From Escherichia phage JLBYU08, in the sequence record OK272482.1: a stretch of 64,000 nt of DNA. One strand, given 5' to 3'. Under the pieces are notes generated by a model that did no database searches, was not told the DNA's origin, and was given only the letters and a program-made list of their open reading frames with translations. A program made the position numbers and the translations under genes. How positions within the stretch are numbered: position 1 is the first letter of the stretch; every line of letters starts with the position of its first letter. Positions 34,008 through 61,258 of the stretch are shown piece by piece.

Positions 34008-35536
34008 CACACAATTAGCTGCCCGGCTAAAGTGCTGGAAGCACCTATAACACATCTTTCAACTAAATTTCCTACAACCACAATCACTTACCTCCCACAC
34101 ATGACTGTTTGCTTGTTTAGTGAGCAGTCATGCCTTGACATTCTTGCCTATCCTGATAAAATTAAGTTCTTCTCTTTTCTTTTACCGAGTAATTCGGGTT
34201 TTCTGTTCTCTTCGGTTTGAAGGGGTATGGAGATACACCTGAGTGAACAGGGTGAACAACCGAACATTTGGCTATGGCATTAGCATGGCGAAGCGGACGG
34301 GTGACGAAAGAGGGGCCGGAGGACACCAGTCACTGCCATATGATATATGGGTGATAACCTGAAGAGTCTGAATAAGTGTTTAAGTACCAGTCAGAGGAAA
34401 AGGTGAATGGTAGCCGAAGGGGGAGGGGGGGTTTCTTGTATCTTTAATTTGTATATTATGTATACACTTGTAAACCAATCTCATTTGAATTTGTTTACCA
34501 CACAAAGGGGATAGAGACAAATATTATCTATTAAACTTGAATTATTTATAGAAAATACCACAACACCACTTAAGTCTTTGATTTTACACACAAATCCTAC
34601 AGATATTCACCCTCCATATTTAACATACCTGTAACATATTCCATACCCTACCTGTCTGATCAATTCACCCAACCACACCCTCCATATTTTCCCTGTCTGT
34701 ACCACCCCTGCCCCGCCGGGAGTCCCGTCATATCTGGCTTTCCAGCAAATATCACACCCACAAATATCATTGCCTGAAGAGGGTTTCATCCCATAATACC
34801 TGCCTTACCTGAAGAGCGCTTCATATACCCCGTAAATTTTTTTAATTGACCTCCTCCCCGCCGCCGGAGGGGTCGGCTTTTCCCACACAGGCCTGAAGAG
34901 TCAGCCAGAAATATTTGAACAGGTCCAGTTATACCACGATTTTGACCTGACCGACAGGGAGGCCCGAAGGGTCTAGCTTTCAGCTAGAGTCCTTGCAGGA
35001 CCTACAGGAGCGCTGCCAGGCGGACGAAATGGGAATACTTCTCATTCTTATAACAATTCTCAAATATCAAGGCAGTGAGGCAAATTAATAGGTGAGGCCG
35101 TTCACATAGTGGCACAACATTTGCAATCTATTTTGTGTGGGGGAATGAGAATACATATCATTGTGAGAACCATTATCATTACGGGCAATTTAACATAATA
35201 CCCATTATACGCACCACTGACGATACATACAGGGATTGATAACATGGGTTACTGTTTACGCATATAACAATTATATTTCTTACTATTTGTGTGGGATATA
35301 GTTAGCAGCCGATAGATTAGATATTGACCTGCGGACTTCTGACCGTCTAGACGTCTAAACGCCCACACAACAAGGCTTATACATACATCGCTGAATGTAA
35401 ACAGGGCCGCAAAAATGCTACCATACCAGATTGTAAATTTTTCATGCAGCACTTGACAAAGAGGAGAAAAACTTGTCTGACACAATATGACATACTGGGC
35501 ACATTAAACACACTTTAGACTTAATTGACATGCCTG

Positions 35537-37453: not shown

Positions 37454-37726
37454 TTACTTACGGCGGCAGAATTCAAGCGTTTTTAATTGATAATCTTCCT
37501 CAGCCTGGAGTACAACCGCCTCGATCATTTCGTTGGCATTGTTGAAGCCATACCCTTTAGCGAACTCATCCGCACCACCTTCGTGATCATGTTCTGCGTT
37601 CATCGCTTCCACGAAATGGAATTCAAGATTATTGAGATAAGGGCTTGATGTTCCGTCCTCTTTTTCGATGAGATCCCAAATAGCATTAAAACGTGATTCG
37701 ACTTCTTGATTAATCCAGCTTGACAT
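37454..37726 (-). CDS. hypothetical acidic protein
   Basis: 90-aa ORF. Confidence 0.45.
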   Translation of the reverse strand: MSSWINQEVESRFNAIWDLIEKEDGTSSPYLNNLEFHFVEAMNAEHDHEGGADEFAKGYGFNNANEMIEAVVLQAEEDYQLKTLEFCRRK

Positions 37727-37945
37727 AATGTTTTCCTCTCTTCTGGTTGTTGTGTGGGCACTTTTGCCCCTTCAAGATAAATGTTACCCCACCACCTGGC
37801 AGATGTCAACGGTTTTTATAGTTCTTATATGACAGGCAGGCCCGGTGATTGTCTCCCCCTGTTCCCAAGTGCCGCCCGTTTAATAAGAATAGCAAAAGGG
37901 GCCGAACAAGTCAACCCCCAAAATCAGTACCAAAACACTTTTTAT

Positions 37946-46862: not shown

Positions 46863-46912
46863 AAATTTATCCTCTTTACTGGTTAGTGCGGTGTTGTTCA
46901 CCTTGTAGGGTA

Positions 46913-46940
46913 ATAATACCATGATTAACCTTGTTGTCAA
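46913..46940 (-). promoter_or_regulatory. sigma70-like promoter (TTGACA-N16-TATTAT)
   Basis: Minus-strand consensus hexamers. Confidence 0.5.
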
Positions 46941-47257
46941 CGACTATTTTAAATTATTTTTATGATAGAATCCACCTGCCGTCCCCGCCAGGTTAACCAC
47001 CATTTTTCGTACTCTTCTTTATGTTCCAACGCTCCCGCCATAGCCTTTTCAACCAGGGCGATAGCCTCAGAGTCATTAATAGCTACATTTTCCAGGGGGG
47101 ATCATATCATTTTTGTACCTCCTCTTCAATTGTTACCTATCCTGTAGCATAGGCCCACCAGGTTTACAAGCCTTCATTCTCCCCTACCTGGTCAGTTAGG
47201 TCCTGCCAGGCTGGCCCCGCCAGGTGGCACAATATACCTATCGAAAGGACGGCAGGC

Positions 47258-47475
47258 ACCGGTGACGGGGGAGACAACCACCGGGGATGGGCGCTGCATA
47301 AAATGAGAACGGTTATCATTATCATTTAAAAATTTATGCAAAAAAAAAAATCCTTGCTTTCTTTGTCCTGTGTGATACTATAATAACAAGCCGGGGCAAC
47401 AGGGGCCGGGAGACAATCACCGGGCCTGCCCGTTATTCTGCAAACGAGAATGATTATCATTCAAAATTCTAAATG
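47258..47475. repeat. two about 75-bp direct repeats sharing core GGGAGACAAYCACCGGG and GAGAAYGRTTATCATT
   Basis: Copies at about 47258-47335 and 47399-47475; inverted core copy at 37838-37872. Confidence 0.55.
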
Positions 47476-47578
47476 AGAACTCCTCGCATTTAATAAATTT
47501 AATTAGCACGCTAATTACCCTCCGTAACAATTTACTATAAAATAGTATCCACTAAAATATTCCCATATAGAAATTTTA

Positions 47579-47761
47579 AAAATCCATTTCTGAAAACGAA
47601 AAATCGATTTCGTCCCCAAAAATTTCAGGTTGAGAGCCGGAACGATTTCCAGAAAATCCGATTCAGAAAACGAAAAACAGATCGAGTACTGAGAAATTTA
47701 TCGAGAAAAATTTTCAGAAAATCCAAGCCCTGAAATGAAAAGTAGATCGAGTACCTGGAAA
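47579..47761. repeat. degenerate tandem repeats (CAGAAAAYCC ... AGATCGAGTAC units)
   Basis: TTCAGAAAA(C/T) four times and AGATCGAGTAC twice at about 65-bp spacing. Confidence 0.5.
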
Positions 47762-48066
47762 GCTGCACCGCAACTTCAAGATAGCGGTTAGATTGTTACC
47801 ATAGAAGGTCAAGGGTAAGTGGAGGAAGTTCTAGTAGAGAGAGGTTAGCATGTGTGGGAAATCTATAATGGTGGCCTGGAATATGGTGCAAACGATAGGA
47901 TGAGTTATTCAGCTTGTCGCGCCTACTCTGAAAAATCCATTTTAGTTTTCGATCCATTTTCTGATTTTCTAAGAATTTTAAAATATCCAGCCCGGTGAAA
48001 TATCAAAAGGAGGAAATCCATTTTAGAAATCCCCCTTATACTTGATATGCCAGAAATTTTCAAGTA

Positions 48067-48396
48067 TCAGTTGTCTTTGTTTTTAGGTTTGTACATGCGC
48101 AGAGGTATGGTCTTTGTAACATTCCATTTCCTCAACCCTTCCCAGCTCCAGTTGTGGGCGTGGTATCCGGTTATGCATGCACTACTGGAGTGATCGTAAG
48201 CATAAGAGAACGCTAAGCGCACCAGGTGGGGCCAGTCCTTCCATGGTTGTGGACCGTAAGCTTTTCTCCAACACCGACACAAACTAAATGTCTCAAGGAT
48301 AGGAAGGATAACAAACCCATACACTGTCACCAAAATAGCCAGTGCAATGATTGTCAGGAATACATACCCTGCAGTTGAAATGATGATCTCTGTCAT
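48067..48396 (-). CDS. membrane protein
   Basis: N-terminal TM. Confidence 0.45.
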   Translation of the reverse strand: MTEIIISTAGYVFLTIIALAILVTVYGFVILPILETFSLCRCWRKAYGPQPWKDWPHLVRLAFSYAYDHSSSACITGYHAHNWSWEGLRKWNVTKTIPLRMYKPKNKDN

Positions 48397-56368: not shown

Positions 56369-56697
56369 CATCTGTTCAGGTAGGTCGTTAAGCTACCCCG
56401 CACCATTACGTGCATAGCCATACAGTTTCCTGTATGGATCGGACTACCTCACTGCCTTGGTAACAAGGCACCTCCCATTTCGACCGCACTTGCTGGCCTA
56501 CTCTACTCGCTTCTTCACACCAACCTATGTTGGAGCTATGCTTTCGATAGTCTCTGAACGTTCATCCTCTCGGATGCTTCGCTGCGGATTAGCATATTGA
56601 GCTTTTACCATACTCAGGTGTAAAAGTCAACTTAGCTTTCCCGTCAATTAAAGAGGTTATTCGACATAGATCACTCTATGAAGCCACAATGTTATTT
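56369..56697 (-). other. group I self-splicing intron (no internal ORF)
   Basis: Minus-strand core elements P AATTGACGGGAAAGC, Q AATCCGCAGC, R GTTCAGAGACTA, S GTAGTCCGATCC; exon 1 ends in U, intron ends in G; boundaries inferred. Confidence 0.7.
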
Positions 56698-59121
56698 ATG
56701 GTAATAGATAATACGACGGACACCTTCATCGTACCACCCACGCTTCACCATTTGGTGGTGCATGAGTATCCCAACTAAGTCACACAACGATGCACCACCA
56801 TTTTGTTGGTATGCATTAAGTAAAGAGTGTTTAGATCGGGTCCAGATGGCATGACCATCAAAAGAGTATATAAACTTCTTACCAGTTGCTTCCCAGAATT
56901 TCTCCAGATCCTCTTTACGCCCCTTAAGACCAGGGTTGGCATCCCAAAGCGCATCGATTACCCTTTGCCCCAACTCTGGAGAGATATCCAGCATGTCTGC
57001 AACTTTATCTTTTTGTGCCCCGTACATAACCCCATACGTGATAGGTTTACCGTCGTTACGGGACACCTCTCTGCCTGCTACTTTTGTATATGCCTCAGCA
57101 TTGTTTTGGTGTGCGTCCCCGTTACTTACAACATCATAATACAAGCCGTTGTCGAACTCAAAGGCACCCCAAGCCCCGATAAGCTGCTCTAAGTTGGACC
57201 CGTCAATACCGATCTCAAAGTATCCTGGAGGAACACCCCACAGACTACGCATCTCTTTACCCATAACCACTTTAGGAGATGGTTTAGGCATGTTTGCACA
57301 AATACTGTGTTTCTGTCGGGAAGTGTTTGTTAGCCCAGAACTTTTAGCAGGAAGCTTATGGTCAATCTTCAAACGTGGGTGATTAAGAAGACCAGTATCA
57401 ACCTTATCCTCCTTGATTGGATCAAGGACCGATCTGCGGTTTCGCAATGATAACCACAAGACGATATCTTTAGCCATCTCTCCGTTCAATTTTTCAAGAT
57501 TTGGGCATAGGTGTCCAAACGTATCTTTCAGCTGCGGAGAAGTAATAAGTGCTCTGGCTTTTCTACGTATTTTCCCGAATACTTCCTTTTTAATCCTTTC
57601 GGAGTTAGGAAAGCTTCGGAACTTGTGCACGGTTGTCTGAAACTTAGCATCAGTTTTGTTCCAGAAGTTGATAATCAGGTCACAATACTCTGACTCTAAA
57701 AGCTCGTCCATGTATGCATATACTCGTGCATCAACATCTGCATCAGGTAGAGCTTTCTTCTTGCTGTCTTTAGTTACATCCTTAGTTCTCCACATTGTCG
57801 GAAGCCAACCAGCACTGATCAGGTATCGCTTAATGTCGTCCTGATTGCTGATTTTCATAGGTATCTTGCAGTCCGGCATTCGCTTCTGCTGTAGATCACT
57901 TATTGCCTGATCCATCAGCTCTTTAGGTAAAGGTTGTGGTGTGGAAGTGCCCTTAATATAGCCTCTCAAGAAATCAGCCATCTTATCAGGGTCTTTGCAG
58001 CCCATCTCTTCACACCATTTTATCCCCATCTTGCTGACATCTCCTGTGGAGGTAAATGCTCGCTTAGGCGGGGCTTTGAACTCCAAAGCACTCATGTCCA
58101 CAGGATAGCCAAGCTTATCTTTTAACCATTTCCAACCATTGTTGGAGATTGTCCCATCTTGGTTAAACGGCTTTTCAGGGAACTTGGGCCGCTGAGACAT
58201 TGACAGCTCTTTTAAAGGAAGTTGAGGTTCAACACGATCAGCGATTTCTTTCATCCACGCATCGCAACGGTCACGTAAAGCAATAGCTCCATCTATGTCG
58301 AAGTATACACCCTGACGGGCCTGCAGCTCCATCAGGAAGTGCTGCAGCATGCCTCGACGTAGTGCGTTCTTCCAGGTGATCTTCTTGAACCCTTTCGGCT
58401 TCTCTTTGGCTGGATCGTACATAAAGTTCTGCATGTCAGATTTGCCGTAGAATACACCTTTTGATTCCGCTACCAGCTCTTTCCAGAGCAGCTCCTGGAT
58501 GATAACGTCCTCGAATACACGATCCACATACTTCCACAACGGAAGATCGCGCCAGTCATCAATTTGAACTTTCTGGTTACCAAGGGCGTAGCCCCATGCC
58601 ATAAGGCCGTGAGGACCAACAGGCTGCATTTTCTTAGTAACCGGGTTGAATACAGAGTCCGGACAACCTTTTGGTAAAGGGCGATCAGGCCACAAGATTC
58701 GGCTCATCGCCAACGTATCAAACAGGTTAACCTGGTGGTCGTTGATAGTCCCCATACATTTAGGATCACGGAACATATCAAAATGAATACCGGATAATCT
58801 CTCCATCAGCATAAAGTCATAACTGTAGCAGTTATGGCAGTTCAAAGCTGTTGGTGACCAGTCGGAATTGCCTGTAAGCCAACCCTCCAACTCTGAAAAA
58901 TCTGCTATGCGAACTTCAAAATCTTTATAAAAAGTTTTCTTTGCCAGAATAAAGTTCTTAGCCTTCTCTATATCCTCTTCGGAGTAGTGTGTGCGGTCAT
59001 TTAGAGGAAGGAACAGCATAAAACGGTTCTTATTCAGCTCTTTAAACAGGCCGCAGTGATAATAAAGATCTGGGTCTTCCAGCAAACCGGATGACTCAAA
59101 ATCGAACGACCACATGCTCAT
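56698..59121 (-). CDS. DNA polymerase family A, exon 1 (3'-5' exo and polymerase domains to the His of motif C)
   Basis: Exo I DFESSG at N-terminus, motif B KPITYGVMYGAQ; uninterrupted frame would stop 2 codons after the inferred splice site. Confidence 0.8.
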
Positions 59122-59179: not shown

Positions 59180-61258
59180 TTAAAAAGGTGTTTCATCATC
59201 CTCAAAACCAGGGACCGGATCAGAGGATGGATCATCGTATTGGAGGTCTTCCTGCGTGTCAATAGGCTTGACAGTGGGTGTTACAACCTTATCAGCCACA
59301 ACCTTGCCCATAGGTGTTTCTACAACTGCATGCTCCTGATCCTCAAACATAGCCTGAGGTCTCCAAACAACCTCCCCACCTTCTCCGTCTGTGAACATCT
59401 GCATTTCTTTGTCCCAGTACCAATTACTGGCATCATAGAACTTACCTGTATGCGGATCCATAACTAAAGTGTCAGCAATACCTAAAGTTTTTGCTGGACG
59501 GTTTTTAAGACCTACCAGACGGACACGTCCACGAGAACGATCCACCATTTCTTCGGCCTCGACACCTATGACTACCCAACTCAACTGTTCAAGCCCAGCC
59601 GATCCTCGCAAATTCTCTTTTCGCACAGGATACCAGAAAGGTAATGGGTTACCATCCTTGTCCTTAGGGGGCACAATCTCTGTACGTTTGAGGTGAGCGA
59701 TCACCAAGATAAACACGTTAAACTGCTTACAAAACGCAGCCAGTTGGGTCATAGCCATGTCCAGTTCTTTTCGCTCATCCTTAACATTAAGCCCTGAAAT
59801 TACCATGGACAGGTGATCCAGCACAATATAACGACAATGGTACAGGCAAACCATTTGCTTAAGCTTGGTAATCAACTCGTCCACTGGAATAGACCCGAAA
59901 TGTTTGAACACTTTGATTTTTCCAGCTTTTGCCCATGATTGGTGAATCTCTGCGTGTTCTTGATCAGTTAAAAACTGGCTAGGATCTTCAACAAACTCTT
60001 TAACATCAAACCCTAACTGGTTTGCATACAAGGAGTTAATTGCTTCCTCTGGGTCCTCCTCAAGATGAATCATGCATAGACGATCATCCTCTTCATAGTC
60101 ATCGGCCTTCGGGCATGTCGGGTCCATTAGGTATCTTGCAATACAGTGTTCCAGTTTTTTAGCCACGGTTGTTTTACCGCCGCCTGATGGACCTGTAAGC
60201 ATTACAAGTGTCCCTTTGTGCAAGCCTTTTAGCATTTTTTGCAGTTTTGGGAACTCTGCACTGATATCTACCCCGTTGGAAGTCTTTTTCCGCAAAGACT
60301 CGATAGAGAAGTCTTCTAAATCCGACACAGCATCAGGCACATATTTAACAGGGTGCCGGAACATGTTGACAATATCTTCCAGCTTTTTAGCCTTCAGCAT
60401 GTCTCGGATATCTTTTACACCGTCAGGGTCATTTACTTCACCAGGGTATTCTACGTGGTAAACGTTATCAGCCATCAAAAATGCTGCGATATTGTGCGTG
60501 GCCTCAACACCTTTAATGACGTGTTTTTGCTTCTCTACCTCGTTAGCTGCATCGTTATCCATTGCCAGCACAACTGTTCCATAGCTACGGATAAACTTCT
60601 CATTGTTTGCAAAAGTATCTACTGCGTTTGCACATCCACAGTTAATTCCAACAAAAGGCAGGCAGGGTTTTCCTGCCAGATCACCACCGTTGATAACTGC
60701 GTCGATCCCGTCCTGGACCTCTTTAGCCCACTGCTTCACCTTTGCCGGGGCTTTAGCGTTGGTGAGAATCCCTTTTACTTGTATCTGATATGCAGCCTGC
60801 CATGCTGCAATAACATCACCTTCTCCCTCACAAACGTTAATCTGCTTACGGTTGTTGGAAGATGCACACAGCTTTTGACCAAACATCTGGGAGTTGGCCT
60901 TTACGATACCAACAACGGAGAAATGGCCCCTTTGCTCTTTAGGAATAGTCCAGTCACGCTTTTTGAAACCAGACAGATTTCCGTAGCGGTCGTAATATGG
61001 GAAATATGTTGCAGTGACTGTCACACCGTCTTCTTGGGACAATGCTGATCGCACACCAAAATATTGTGCAGCCATCAGACCGATATTTTGTTGTGGGACA
61101 GGGACAATTTTAGTATTTTCTAAAACAGTCTCTACAGTTTCAACTTCTTTTTCATCACGATAGTCTCGTTTCACACTTCCCCCACTTTTATACTTAGTTT
61201 CTTTCGGGTTTGGCTCACCGAAACGGTTGTATGCAGATGCCATAAATTTACTTCCCAT
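59180..61258 (-). CDS. DNA primase-helicase (T7 gp4-like)
   Basis: TOPRIM CEGEGD and MDNDAANE, Walker A LTGPSGGGKTT, Walker B IVLDHLSM. Confidence 0.85.
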   Translation of the reverse strand: MGSKFMASAYNRFGEPNPKETKYKSGGSVKRDYRDEKEVETVETVLENTKIVPVPQQNIGLMAAQYFGVRSALSQEDGVTVTATYFPYYDRYGNLSGFKKRDWTIPKEQRGHFSVVGIVKANSQMFGQKLCASSNNRKQINVCEGEGDVIAAWQAAYQIQVKGILTNAKAPAKVKQWAKEVQDGIDAVINGGDLAGKPCLPFVGINCGCANAVDTFANNEKFIRSYGTVVLAMDNDAANEVEKQKHVIKGVEATHNIAAFLMADNVYHVEYPGEVNDPDGVKDIRDMLKAKKLEDIVNMFRHPVKYVPDAVSDLEDFSIESLRKKTSNGVDISAEFPKLQKMLKGLHKGTLVMLTGPSGGGKTTVAKKLEHCIARYLMDPTCPKADDYEEDDRLCMIHLEEDPEEAINSLYANQLGFDVKEFVEDPSQFLTDQEHAEIHQSWAKAGKIKVFKHFGSIPVDELITKLKQMVCLYHCRYIVLDHLSMVISGLNVKDERKELDMAMTQLAAFCKQFNVFILVIAHLKRTEIVPPKDKDGNPLPFWYPVRKENLRGSAGLEQLSWVVIGVEAEEMVDRSRGRVRLVGLKNRPAKTLGIADTLVMDPHTGKFYDASNWYWDKEMQMFTDGEGGEVVWRPQAMFEDQEHAVVETPMGKVVADKVVTPTVKPIDTQEDLQYDDPSSDPVPGFEDDETPF

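Follow-up and report, generated by a model that had tools for sequence, protein, structure and literature searches.

What does a phage do with about one kilobase of repeat-rich DNA that encodes no protein? Escherichia phage JLBYU08 raises this question in the stretch of 64,000 nucleotides (nt) analysed here (sequence record OK272482.1; hereafter the window), where a region free of open reading frames (ORFs), at about 47111-48066, lies inside a minus-strand arm of small early-type genes. An earlier note on this DNA had suggested that the gap could be a second replication origin, a transcription boundary or a repeat-encoded RNA. Here, we compare the gap with its counterparts in related phages. 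It is non-coding and conserved, its motifs recur in the same order in other genera, and both of its direct repeats carry palindromes that resemble operators of Fur, the iron sensor of the host. Our tentative proposal is a conserved control locus that encodes no protein, that Fur would gate and whose transcription would run counter to the early-gene arm. The earlier note did not mention the Fur-type palindromes, the direction in which the promoters point, the third repeat-core copy at 37842-37857 or the ordered architecture across genera.

The gap is conserved and non-coding

A megablast search with 46900-48100 returned 121 phage records, nearly all of them Escherichia phages of the genus Vequintavirus (rV5-like), with phage EdH4 as the closest relative (98.6%). 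We aligned the window with 12 relatives, giving 13 Vequintavirus genomes in total. In this alignment, 7-8% of the columns vary in the block of repeat units (47220-47484), 20% in the array that follows and 13-25% in the flanking genes. The central block (47750-47930) is variable in 58% of its columns and has almost no insertions or deletions. Substitutions show no excess at third codon positions anywhere in the gap (by codon phase, the counts are 36/37/32 for the variable block, 13/16/10 for the array and 7/10/5 for the repeat units); the same count for three neighbouring genes gave 21/10/51, 6/5/14 and 6/6/34. The missing codon periodicity excludes coding on either strand. The ORFs that have been annotated here vary between records: EdH4 has two small ones on the minus strand, FFH2 three on both strands (ORF179-181) and rV5 two (ORF198 and ORF199), and the records of Alma and V18 have none.

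The gap is therefore not a decayed gene, since codon periodicity is absent, the frames are inconsistent and parts of it are more conserved than the genes on either side. This bears out the idea of a functional non-coding element rather than a decayed ORF, as related genomes carry no consistent intact gene here and the conservation, across genera, is at the level of DNA.

Other identities for the locus were tried and rejected. The record of a Klebsiella phage (OY978796.1; locus L003, 10349-11044) annotates tRNA-Lys, tRNA-Ile and tRNA-Met over it; ARAGORN finds none of these, and no tRNA in the window or in five related loci (L001-L005). The tRNA-Met label falls on the counterpart of the second repeat unit. 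Rfam 15 gives no family for the gap or the related loci at gathering or at permissive thresholds; the best match within the gap has E = 0.87, and the five related loci return nothing at E <= 1. Host-derived DNA was ruled out by a blastn search of 47240-47510 against 5,426 E. coli genomes, which gave no match.

The order of motifs is kept across genera

Outside the genus, sensitive blastn retained only about 47393-47497, corresponding to the second of the two repeat units, at 72-88% identity. Matches were found in Phapecoctavirus, Mydovirus, Seunavirus (PVP-SE1), Certrevirus (CR8 and PcCB7V) and in Serratia and Aeromonas phages. Six loci outside the genus (PVP-SE1, CR8, PcCB7V, the Serratia phage, Mydovirus and the Aeromonas phage, where the locus is shortened) are colinear on the plus strand within an ORF-free gap of 0.6-1 kb, or 0.38 kb in the Aeromonas phage.

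The order begins with a putative sigma-70 promoter on the plus strand (e.g. TTGCAA-17-TATATT or TTGACG-17-CATAAT), which A-tracts or TGTAAAGA repeats often precede. It is followed on the same strand by a stem-loop, ACACAT(A/G)GCG..., that presents GAGACAAWCACC, and by one to four Fur-type palindromes, TGAGAATnATTCTCA, which start about 90 nt after the -35 hexamer. Several genera have a further plus-strand promoter at this point. Next come three units ending in AAAAnCGATCGAGWACC (GATCGAGTAC), spaced 63-85 bp apart and in many cases followed by AAAAATTTTTT, then a divergent spacer of about 230-250 bp, and finally one to four copies of [ACG]AAATATC, which adjoin the convergent upstream gene at its 3' end. 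Neither the Mydovirus nor the Aeromonas locus yielded these distal repeats. Phapecoctavirus keeps the promoter, stem-loop and palindromes, and different A/T-rich repeats replace its GATCGAG units. The order is thus shared by several genera of the Vequintavirinae, and in part by Phapecoctavirus and the Aeromonas phage. A regular expression for the core motif matched the Mydovirus locus alone; the core positions derive from other comparisons.

The flanking proteins of the other genera, including a conserved neighbour of roughly 275 amino acids (aa), have no homologue in the window. All flanking proteins belong to PHROGs of unknown function, and a search for additional loci through the flanking 109-aa protein yielded only two IMG/VR loci. 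That the architecture is kept across genera although the flanking proteins are unrelated argues against a decayed gene or a neutral spacer.

In Vequintavirus, the module of promoter, stem-loop and palindrome is duplicated, and its two copies are the direct repeats that had been described at 47258-47335 and 47399-47475. These are real: they share 56 identities over 85 gapped columns, with an alignment score of 25.5 against -8.3 +/- 4.2 for shuffled sequences (maximum 6.0), about 8 standard deviations above the shuffles. The similarity extends to about 108 nt (roughly 47224-47331 against 47370-47474). The coordinates of these and the other features are collected in Table 1.

Two further observations concern the surroundings of the module in other genera. 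Just upstream of the stem-loop promoter lies a second promoter-driven element of about 90 nt, which reads ACGCCACCCCACGGCGaAAAGGCGGGGCUAAC..ACCAGG..CCUGGU..GGAAGGUGGAUCGCCGGUAG in the plus orientation. It occurs in 13 distinct, highly conserved copies (L052 at about 1335-1425, L053 at about 1340-1420, L055, L003, L005 and others), has no match in Rfam, is absent from the window and could represent a small RNA that has yet to be described. In PVP-SE1, a gene for an HNH homing endonuclease (L052 2093-2680, minus strand) lies on the far side of the gap with two small ORFs in between, and in Certrevirus its place is taken by a protein of roughly 280 aa of unknown function. Around the conserved non-coding module, the gene content turns over.

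Both repeats carry Fur-type operators

We scored two forms of the Fur consensus, the 19-bp form GATAATGATAATCATTATC and the 7-1-7 form TGATAATnATTATCA. The site in unit 1 is the sole match to the consensus with at most three mismatches in the 64 kb (0.04 expected), and the rV5 operator reaches 17 of 19 positions. With the 7-1-7 form, overlapping sites appear at 47304 and 47310 and a two-mismatch site at 47445. The overlapping sites are offset by 6 bp in both repeats (47304/47310 and 47440/47446), and likewise in loci L003, L009, L019, L027 and L005. In footprinted Fur clusters of E. coli, overlapping sites are offset by 6 (or 3) bp (PMC2189734).

A direct reading of the E. coli K-12 fhuA promoter gave 16 contiguous nt in common with the minus strand of unit 2 (ATAATCATTCTCGTTT, 47442-47457). 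Repression of fhuA by Fur is established. The exact 18-mer TGAATGATAATCATTCTC is present in 79 bacterial genomes of several phyla, and 13 of the 62 ORFs that start less than 250 nt from it belong to metal-uptake families, a proportion that stands without a matched random control. Among these neighbours are SBP_bac (iron-type ABC binding proteins; 5), ZnuA (3), Peripla_BP_2 (2), FecCD, FTR1 and PepSY_TM. The palindromes thus resemble Fur operators, and we take this class of site as settled; binding of Fur to them is a prediction. The 'MIIIL...' ORFs that start in the Fur boxes of several phages arise because the box happens to contain an ATG.

Similar sites occur elsewhere. In the window, Fur-like sites (7-1-7 form with two to three mismatches; GTAATGATAATGGTTCTCACAATGATATGTATTCTCATTCC on the minus strand) also cluster at 35048-35183, within a larger repeat-rich, ORF-free region at 34.3-36.5 kb, just past the point at 33-34 kb where the gene arms and the skew switch. 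Unrelated phage contigs from IMG/VR carry two to five tandem copies of the same Fur-type box (L031 3763-3824, L012 1543-1666 and L019 5101-5152), separated in L012 by GC-rich hairpins. Fur boxes may be commoner in phage genomes than has been reported.

Putative promoters face the arm

Candidate promoters on the plus strand precede both repeat units. The first, P(+)1, is damaged in the window by a deletion of 68 nt. All 12 relatives in the alignment, and 114 records in GenBank, retain the missing segment (GGGGCCGCTGTCAACACTTTTCAAAAAATTTTTCTAACCTGATGCGCTAACCGCTGCAACCTGGC on the minus strand), which carries the UP/-35 part, AAAAGTGTTGACA, of a plus-strand early promoter ahead of unit 1. An early promoter of the form AAAA(N3-4)TGTTGAC(N17-19)TATAAT, concentrated among short hypothetical ORFs, has been described in Certrevirus (PMC7344957). 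In the relatives, P(+)1 (AAAAGTGTTGACA-17-CACAAT) fits this promoter except for its -10 hexamer, CACAAT. The second, P(+)2, is unchanged across Vequintavirus save for one substitution in the spacer of rV5, and its counterparts in other genera (TTGCAA-17-TATATT, TTGACG-17-CATAAT and similar) fit the early-promoter class well. The A11 run noted at 47340 is present upstream of P(+)2 and is the only run of nine or more A in the window. A third, weak promoter-like site ahead of the array is poorly conserved within the genus; in other genera, this position holds stronger ones (TTGACA-18-GAAAAT in PVP-SE1 and TTGACT-17-GATACT in Mydovirus).

Putative early-type promoters of this kind are frequent in the window. 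The pattern GTTGAC-N16-19-TAnnnT occurs 19 times against 2.3 expected (e.g. at 1651, 11561, 37033, 46913 and 56171), and the sites follow the direction of the gene arm with one exception, on the plus strand at 60365-60393. Two of the promoters flank the third copy of the repeat core, which lies upstream of the gene starting at 37726. This copy, a stem-loop with GGGAGACAATCACCGG, lacks a Fur box; it is again in the sense direction with respect to its promoter and runs the same way as the arm.

A conserved stem-loop favours the plus strand

The stem-loops of both units present the loop GAGACAAWCACC. In a cross-genus alignment of 13 sequences, the closing helix is 89.5% paired on the plus strand. 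One of its pairs is found as AU, GC and GU (four sequences each), and three more switch between GC or UA and GU. Its covariation score is 0.235 against 0.162 in shuffled alignments, 2 of 500 of which reach 0.235, and 0.04-0.13 with slid partners. This pairing favours the plus strand, because G-U pairs turn into A-C mismatches on the other strand. The plus strand of the gap is also rich in purines, with an AT skew of +0.12 to +0.28 over 47200-47900 and a GC skew of about +0.3 over 47700-48000. The sense strands of this phage are G-rich, and the surrounding arm has skews of the opposite sign. In other genera, neighbours lie on the plus strand too, including a small gene and the second promoter-driven element of about 90 nt. 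Pairing, composition and adjacent features together point, with moderate strength, to the plus strand as the transcribed one.

A strongly structured RNA was considered and rejected, given the weak z-scores of the folds and the failure of RNAalifold; the count of named structures alone gave a modest signal. Single-sequence folds of the repeat block have z = -0.9 and -2.0. In the variable spacer, there is a weak signal of RNA pairing on the plus strand, for a structure that was derived from the same alignment. A terminator scan gave a sole match, an AT-rich stem of 16 pairs at 47623-47586 on the minus strand, which is at chance level.

Array, spacer and distal block

The degenerate tandem array reported downstream of the repeats is real. 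There are three units of 57 nt that are 63-74% alike; Tandem Repeats Finder does not call a tandem repeat. Units 2 and 3 consist of GAAAATCC, about 20 nt and then AGATCGAGTAC, and unit 1 has AAAATCC and a degenerate ending, AATCGATTTCG. The motif TTCAGAAAAY, said to occur four times, has two exact occurrences (47662 and 47713). AGATCGAGTAC does occur twice, as claimed (47679 and 47744), and has no other copy in the 64 kb. The three copies given for AAATCCATTT exist as well (47580, 47933 and 48014) and all lie in the gap, with one only inside the array as it had been delimited. In other genera, the counterpart of the array is ATACGAT...AAAAnCGATCGAGWACC in three copies at the spacing given above. 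With a G+C content of 0.33-0.35, the array is the lowest point of the surrounding 3 kb.

The distal block has counterparts in Seunavirus, the two Certrevirus phages and the Serratia phage, with one to four copies of [ACG]AAATATC. It also contains an ORF of 32 codons, MDFLLLIFHRAGYFKILRKSENGSKTKMDFSE (47923-48021, minus strand), preceded by the Shine-Dalgarno-like sequence AAGGGGG. This ORF is probably no gene, because its substitutions show no codon periodicity (8/5/7 by phase) and the block matches the AAATATC repeats elsewhere.

Table 1. Position of features in and around the gap. Numbers refer to the window; promoters and operators are predicted.
Feature	Position	Strand	Description
Third core copy	37781-37915	-	Promoter GTTGACT-N17-TATTCT at 37915-37886; core at 37857-37842; promoter GTTGACA-N17-TAACAT at 37810-37781
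Small-gene remnant	46949-47110	-	57 aa in EdH4 and relatives, PHROG 21957; bounds the gap, outside the element
Promoter-like site of small gene	47141-47169	-	TTGTAA-17-TACAGG; from reading of the sequence
Deletion junction	47213-47224		68 nt lost, inside direct repeat GGCCCCGCCAGG
P(+)1, -10 hexamer	47228-47233	+	CACAAT; TTGACA-17-CACAAT in relatives, -35 deleted in window
Unit 1 stem-loop	47252-47297	+	Core GGGAGACAACCACCGG at 47269-47284; -20.1 kcal/mol, z = -2.3
Unit 1 Fur-type operator	47305-47323	-	GATAATGATAACCGTTCTC; 16/19 to Fur consensus
A11 run	47340-47350	+	Just upstream of P(+)2 -35, UP-element-like position; A5-A7 in relatives
P(+)2	47354-47384	+	TTGCTT-19-TATAAT; putative sigma-70 promoter
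Unit 2 stem-loop	47394-47431	+	GGGCA...GGCCGGG-AGACAAUCA-CCGGGCC-UGCCC; core at 47408-47423
Unit 2 Fur-type operator cluster	47435-47464	-	Overlapping 19-mers 47440-58 (14/19) and 47446-64 (15/19), 6 bp apart
Half of further Fur-type palindrome	47470-47480	+	TAAATGAGAAC; from reading of the sequence
18-bp palindrome	47500-47517		TAATTAGCACGCTAATTA; conserved in Vequintavirus (centre alone varies), not seen in other genera
Weak promoter-like site	47531-47558	+	TTTACT-16-TAAAAT; poorly conserved within genus
Three-unit array	47566-47761	+	Units 47566-47622, 47640-47696 and 47705-47761, spaced 74 and 65 nt
Variable spacer	47762-47925	+	58% of columns vary, almost no indels, no codon periodicity; G-rich plus strand
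Conserved distal block	47926-48037	+	AAATCCATTT at 47933 and 48014; AAATATC at 47981-87 and 47998-48004
AT-rich hairpin, then U-rich stretch	48038-48087	+	ATACTTGA-N14-TCAAGTAT, then CAGUUGUCUUUGUUUUU; weak candidate terminator, -7.6 kcal/mol, z = -1.1

Limits of the gap and neighbouring features

The earlier note had seen no credible ORF between 46862 and 48067. This is true of about 47111-48066, the ORF-free stretch proper, and not of the minus strand of 46949-47110, where relatives have the conserved 57-aa gene listed in Table 1. In the window, this gene is broken by a 6-nt deletion and an extra C (C6 against C5 in relatives), which leave a 5' end of ATG ATA TGA; a 30-aa ORF at 46949-47041 is what remains of it. 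The -10 hexamer of its promoter-like site is TACAGG in the window and TATAGG in most aligned relatives. The broken gene, the TACAGG hexamer and the A11 run together suggest either real decay or homopolymer sequencing errors. Beyond the gap, the gene arms and the GC skew both flip at about 33-34 kb, and the window contains a group I catalytic intron at 56419-56707 on the minus strand (Rfam RF00028, 72.5 bits, E = 1.9e-16).

Discussion

The conserved order of promoter, stem-loop, palindromes and array poses the question of how these parts might work together. In the model that we tentatively favour, the sigma-70 RNA polymerase of the host would start at P(+)1, which the 68-nt deletion has crippled in this phage, and/or at P(+)2. 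The 5' end of the transcript would form the conserved stem-loop showing GAGACAAWCACC. The polymerase would then cross the Fur operators at 47305-47323 and 47435-47464 and enter about 0.65 kb of purine-rich, ORF-free DNA, which comprises the three GATCGAGTAC units, the spacer of conserved length and, distally, the AAATATC/AAATCCATTT repeats. Transcription would continue as far as the convergent gene at 48067, which it would meet at the 3' end. Here, Fe2+-Fur on the operators would block or modulate passage along the plus strand. The minus strand may have a promoter that faces the one on the plus strand, TTGAAT-18-CAGAAT, and Fur would repress it as well; the operator forms its spacer, and its start would lie about 37 bp from its counterpart. 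If Fur does block passage, transcription of the array and its collision with early transcripts from the minus strand would depend on the iron status of the host. The transcript could insulate the halves of the arm, act as a regulatory RNA, or open or prime an origin. Promoter activity, Fur binding, the RNA and its subsequent role are what we infer from the sequence. The earlier suggestions of a transcription boundary and a repeat-encoded RNA are both compatible with plus-strand promoters that face the minus-strand arm, a purine-rich plus strand and a conserved 5' stem-loop.

Several points weigh against this model. The operators lie at about +50 to +75 relative to the better plus-strand promoter, and Fur operators downstream of the start site are in a position of weak repression in E. 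coli (PMC2189734). The palindromes could also serve an unknown phage protein. Transcription of the plus strand may be weak in this phage, because P(+)2 has a 19-bp spacer and a -35 hexamer with 4 of 6 matches and P(+)1 has lost its -35. At the level of RNA, the stem-loops gain little stability over shuffled controls (z = -0.2 to -2.6), RNAalifold on a MAFFT alignment did not recover the helix, and the changes in the helix are mostly one-sided, by way of G-U pairs. The candidate terminator on the plus strand, which takes in the stop codon of the convergent gene (48067-48396, minus strand), is weak. The conserved spacing of the array units and their palindromic GATC cores fit the binding of a protein to DNA at least as well as a function in RNA. 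In the literature, we found no transcript, 5'-end or Fur-binding data for these phages.

The array leads to the alternative of a replication origin that is activated or primed by transcription. Here, the GATCGAGTAC units and the AAATATC/AAATCCATTT repeats would be iterons for an initiator of the phage or the host, the promoters would open the array or prime synthesis, and Fur would tie replication to iron. The second origin of the earlier note stays in consideration because the array is iteron-like and promoters read into it; we regard it as rather unlikely. The number of units (three) and their spacing (63-85 bp) are kept across genera as the sequence between them diverges, the length of the spacer is maintained despite its 58% variable columns, and the promoters aim into the array, where G+C is lowest. 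In addition, rV5-type phages have a primase-helicase like gp4 of T7 and an origin that is yet to be mapped (PMC3606486). The GC skew, however, is unchanged at 47-48 kb, its single flip in the window being the one at 33-34 kb with gene orientation, and none of the genera has a recognisable initiator or DNA-binding gene next to the gap. GATC shows no enrichment in Vequintavirus (3 sites in 967 bp), and the larger repeat-rich gap at 34.3-36.5 kb qualifies equally well or better as a candidate. An origin would also leave the conserved, RNA-strand-specific pairing unexplained. The same pairing bears on a decidedly less probable alternative, in which Fur represses promoters on the minus strand with its box in their spacer, in line with classical iron-regulated genes, so that iron scarcity would switch on the early genes (from 47110 leftwards) or tandem short hairpin RNAs. 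In unit 2, the hexamers TTGAAT (47464-47459) and CAGAAT (47440-47435) bracket the operator cluster, and TTGAAT and NAGAAT do so at 18-bp spacing in most genera. In E. coli, 83% of Fur clusters overlap sigma-70 promoters (PMC2189734). The two units stand in tandem about 140 bp apart, and the fhuA operator that unit 2 resembles overlaps the fhuA promoter. Yet each hexamer has 4 of 6 matches, which is below the scan threshold, the -11 A or -7 T is missing in 4 of 13 sequences, and unit 1 has no minus-strand promoter because its spacing is about 20. In the PVP-SE1, Serratia, Aeromonas, Mydovirus and Phapecoctavirus phages, the transcript would run for more than 400 nt antisense through plus-strand promoters and a plus-strand gene until it reached a gene on the minus strand, the G-U pairs of its stem would become A-C mismatches, and no U-tract terminator follows the hairpin.

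Rather than regulating phage transcription, the Fur sites could also be decoys that titrate host Fur as the genome replicates, in the manner of the Fur titration assay, and thereby derepress host iron uptake for the benefit of iron-dependent phage enzymes. Each genome has several sites of operator quality (two here plus the cluster at 35048-35183, and up to three in Certrevirus at a two-mismatch threshold), and unrelated phage contigs have tandem arrays of the same 18-mer. Against this, a cell contains thousands of Fur molecules and a phage genome few sites, and the position of the site, fixed between promoter and array in every genus, speaks for a local role in cis; we consider a decoy improbable. 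Least credible of all is the view of the gap as a decayed gene or a neutral spacer, with repeats that are remnants or arose by chance. It could account for the ORFs that some annotators have called (rV5 ORF198/199, FFH2 ORF179-181) and for the high variability of the central 180 bp, and it is contradicted by the absence of codon periodicity, by frames that are inconsistent between genomes, by parts that outdo the flanking genes in conservation and by a motif order that is kept across genera with unrelated flanking genes.

The Fur-gated locus that we propose shares parts with known systems. As in the Fur operators of enterobacteria (E. coli fhuA and ryhB), there is a match to the consensus, overlapping sites that are 6 bp apart, 16 contiguous nt of the fhuA promoter itself and flanking hexamers that resemble -35 and -10 elements. 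Unlike these, the predicted phage site occurs in a strictly lytic phage, controls no iron-uptake gene, and lies between the best-supported promoter, which precedes it, and a repeat array, which follows. The gap also recalls tandem Fur-regulated small RNAs (PrrF1/PrrF2 of Pseudomonas, and enterobacterial RyhB), in that its two tandem units, about 140 bp apart, each combine a Fur-type box with a GC-rich stem-loop and a conserved exposed sequence. The gap differs from them in having no terminator, no sequence similarity and no Rfam match, and pairing favours the strand on which the Fur box follows the hairpin instead of lying in the promoter. If the minus-strand promoter is real, the locus would also be reminiscent of pR/pL of coliphage 186 and Pe/Pc of P2, with facing starts about 37 bp apart, interference and control of one side by a repressor. 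In this case, the repressor would be host Fur, the phage is lytic and both promoters are putative.

The primary origin of T7 consists of promoters 1.1A/1.1B and an AT-rich region, and oriF/oriG of T4 of a promoter and an unwinding element. The gap is similar in that tandem promoters lead into an AT-rich, ORF-free stretch in phages with a T7-like replisome (gp4-type primase-helicase), and differs in its host sigma-70 promoters, iteron-like units, Fur sites and lack of a skew signal. A short conserved stem-loop that follows early promoters and occurs in several copies per genome, three in this case, recalls boxB of lambda nut and put of HK022. This likeness is one of position and copy number, and no antiterminator protein is known in these phages.

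Fur boxes are well known in bacteria, and also in a few prophage cargo operons (sit, stx1). In the literature on phage Fur boxes, we found them in prophage cargo (sit) only, and none of operator quality as a conserved part, at a fixed position, of a non-coding locus in a strictly lytic phage. For the Vequintavirinae, our search likewise yielded no report on Fur sites, transcriptomes or origins, nor any paper describing this locus. The genome paper of rV5 shows one unannotated 'non-coding' box and found no origin by skew (PMC3606486). Each part is familiar by itself, whether sigma-70 early promoter, Fur operator, iteron-like repeat or 5' stem-loop. What appears to be undescribed is their combination into a fixed, subfamily-wide non-coding module directed against the arm of virulent phages.

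Taken further, the locus may be a dedicated iron-sensing module of lytic Vequintavirinae and some phage groups close to them, in which Fur gates either a subfamily-conserved non-coding RNA of about 0.7 kb, antisense to the arm, or the firing of an origin, and so couples the early programme or replication to iron. We hold this wider proposal to be possible, if doubtful. Should it be true, a virulent phage would be putting a host metalloregulator to a new use, and the non-coding loci of phages would gain a new class. The comparison also corrects public annotations over the locus, namely hypothetical proteins and, in one Klebsiella phage record, tRNA calls. The locus itself offers a defined starting point from which the origin and the early transcription units of the subfamily could be mapped. 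The rV5-like phages are widely used as candidates for therapy and biocontrol, and in the gut their hosts are short of iron. Should Fur influence early transcription or replication of these phages, the availability of iron would directly affect the outcome of infection.

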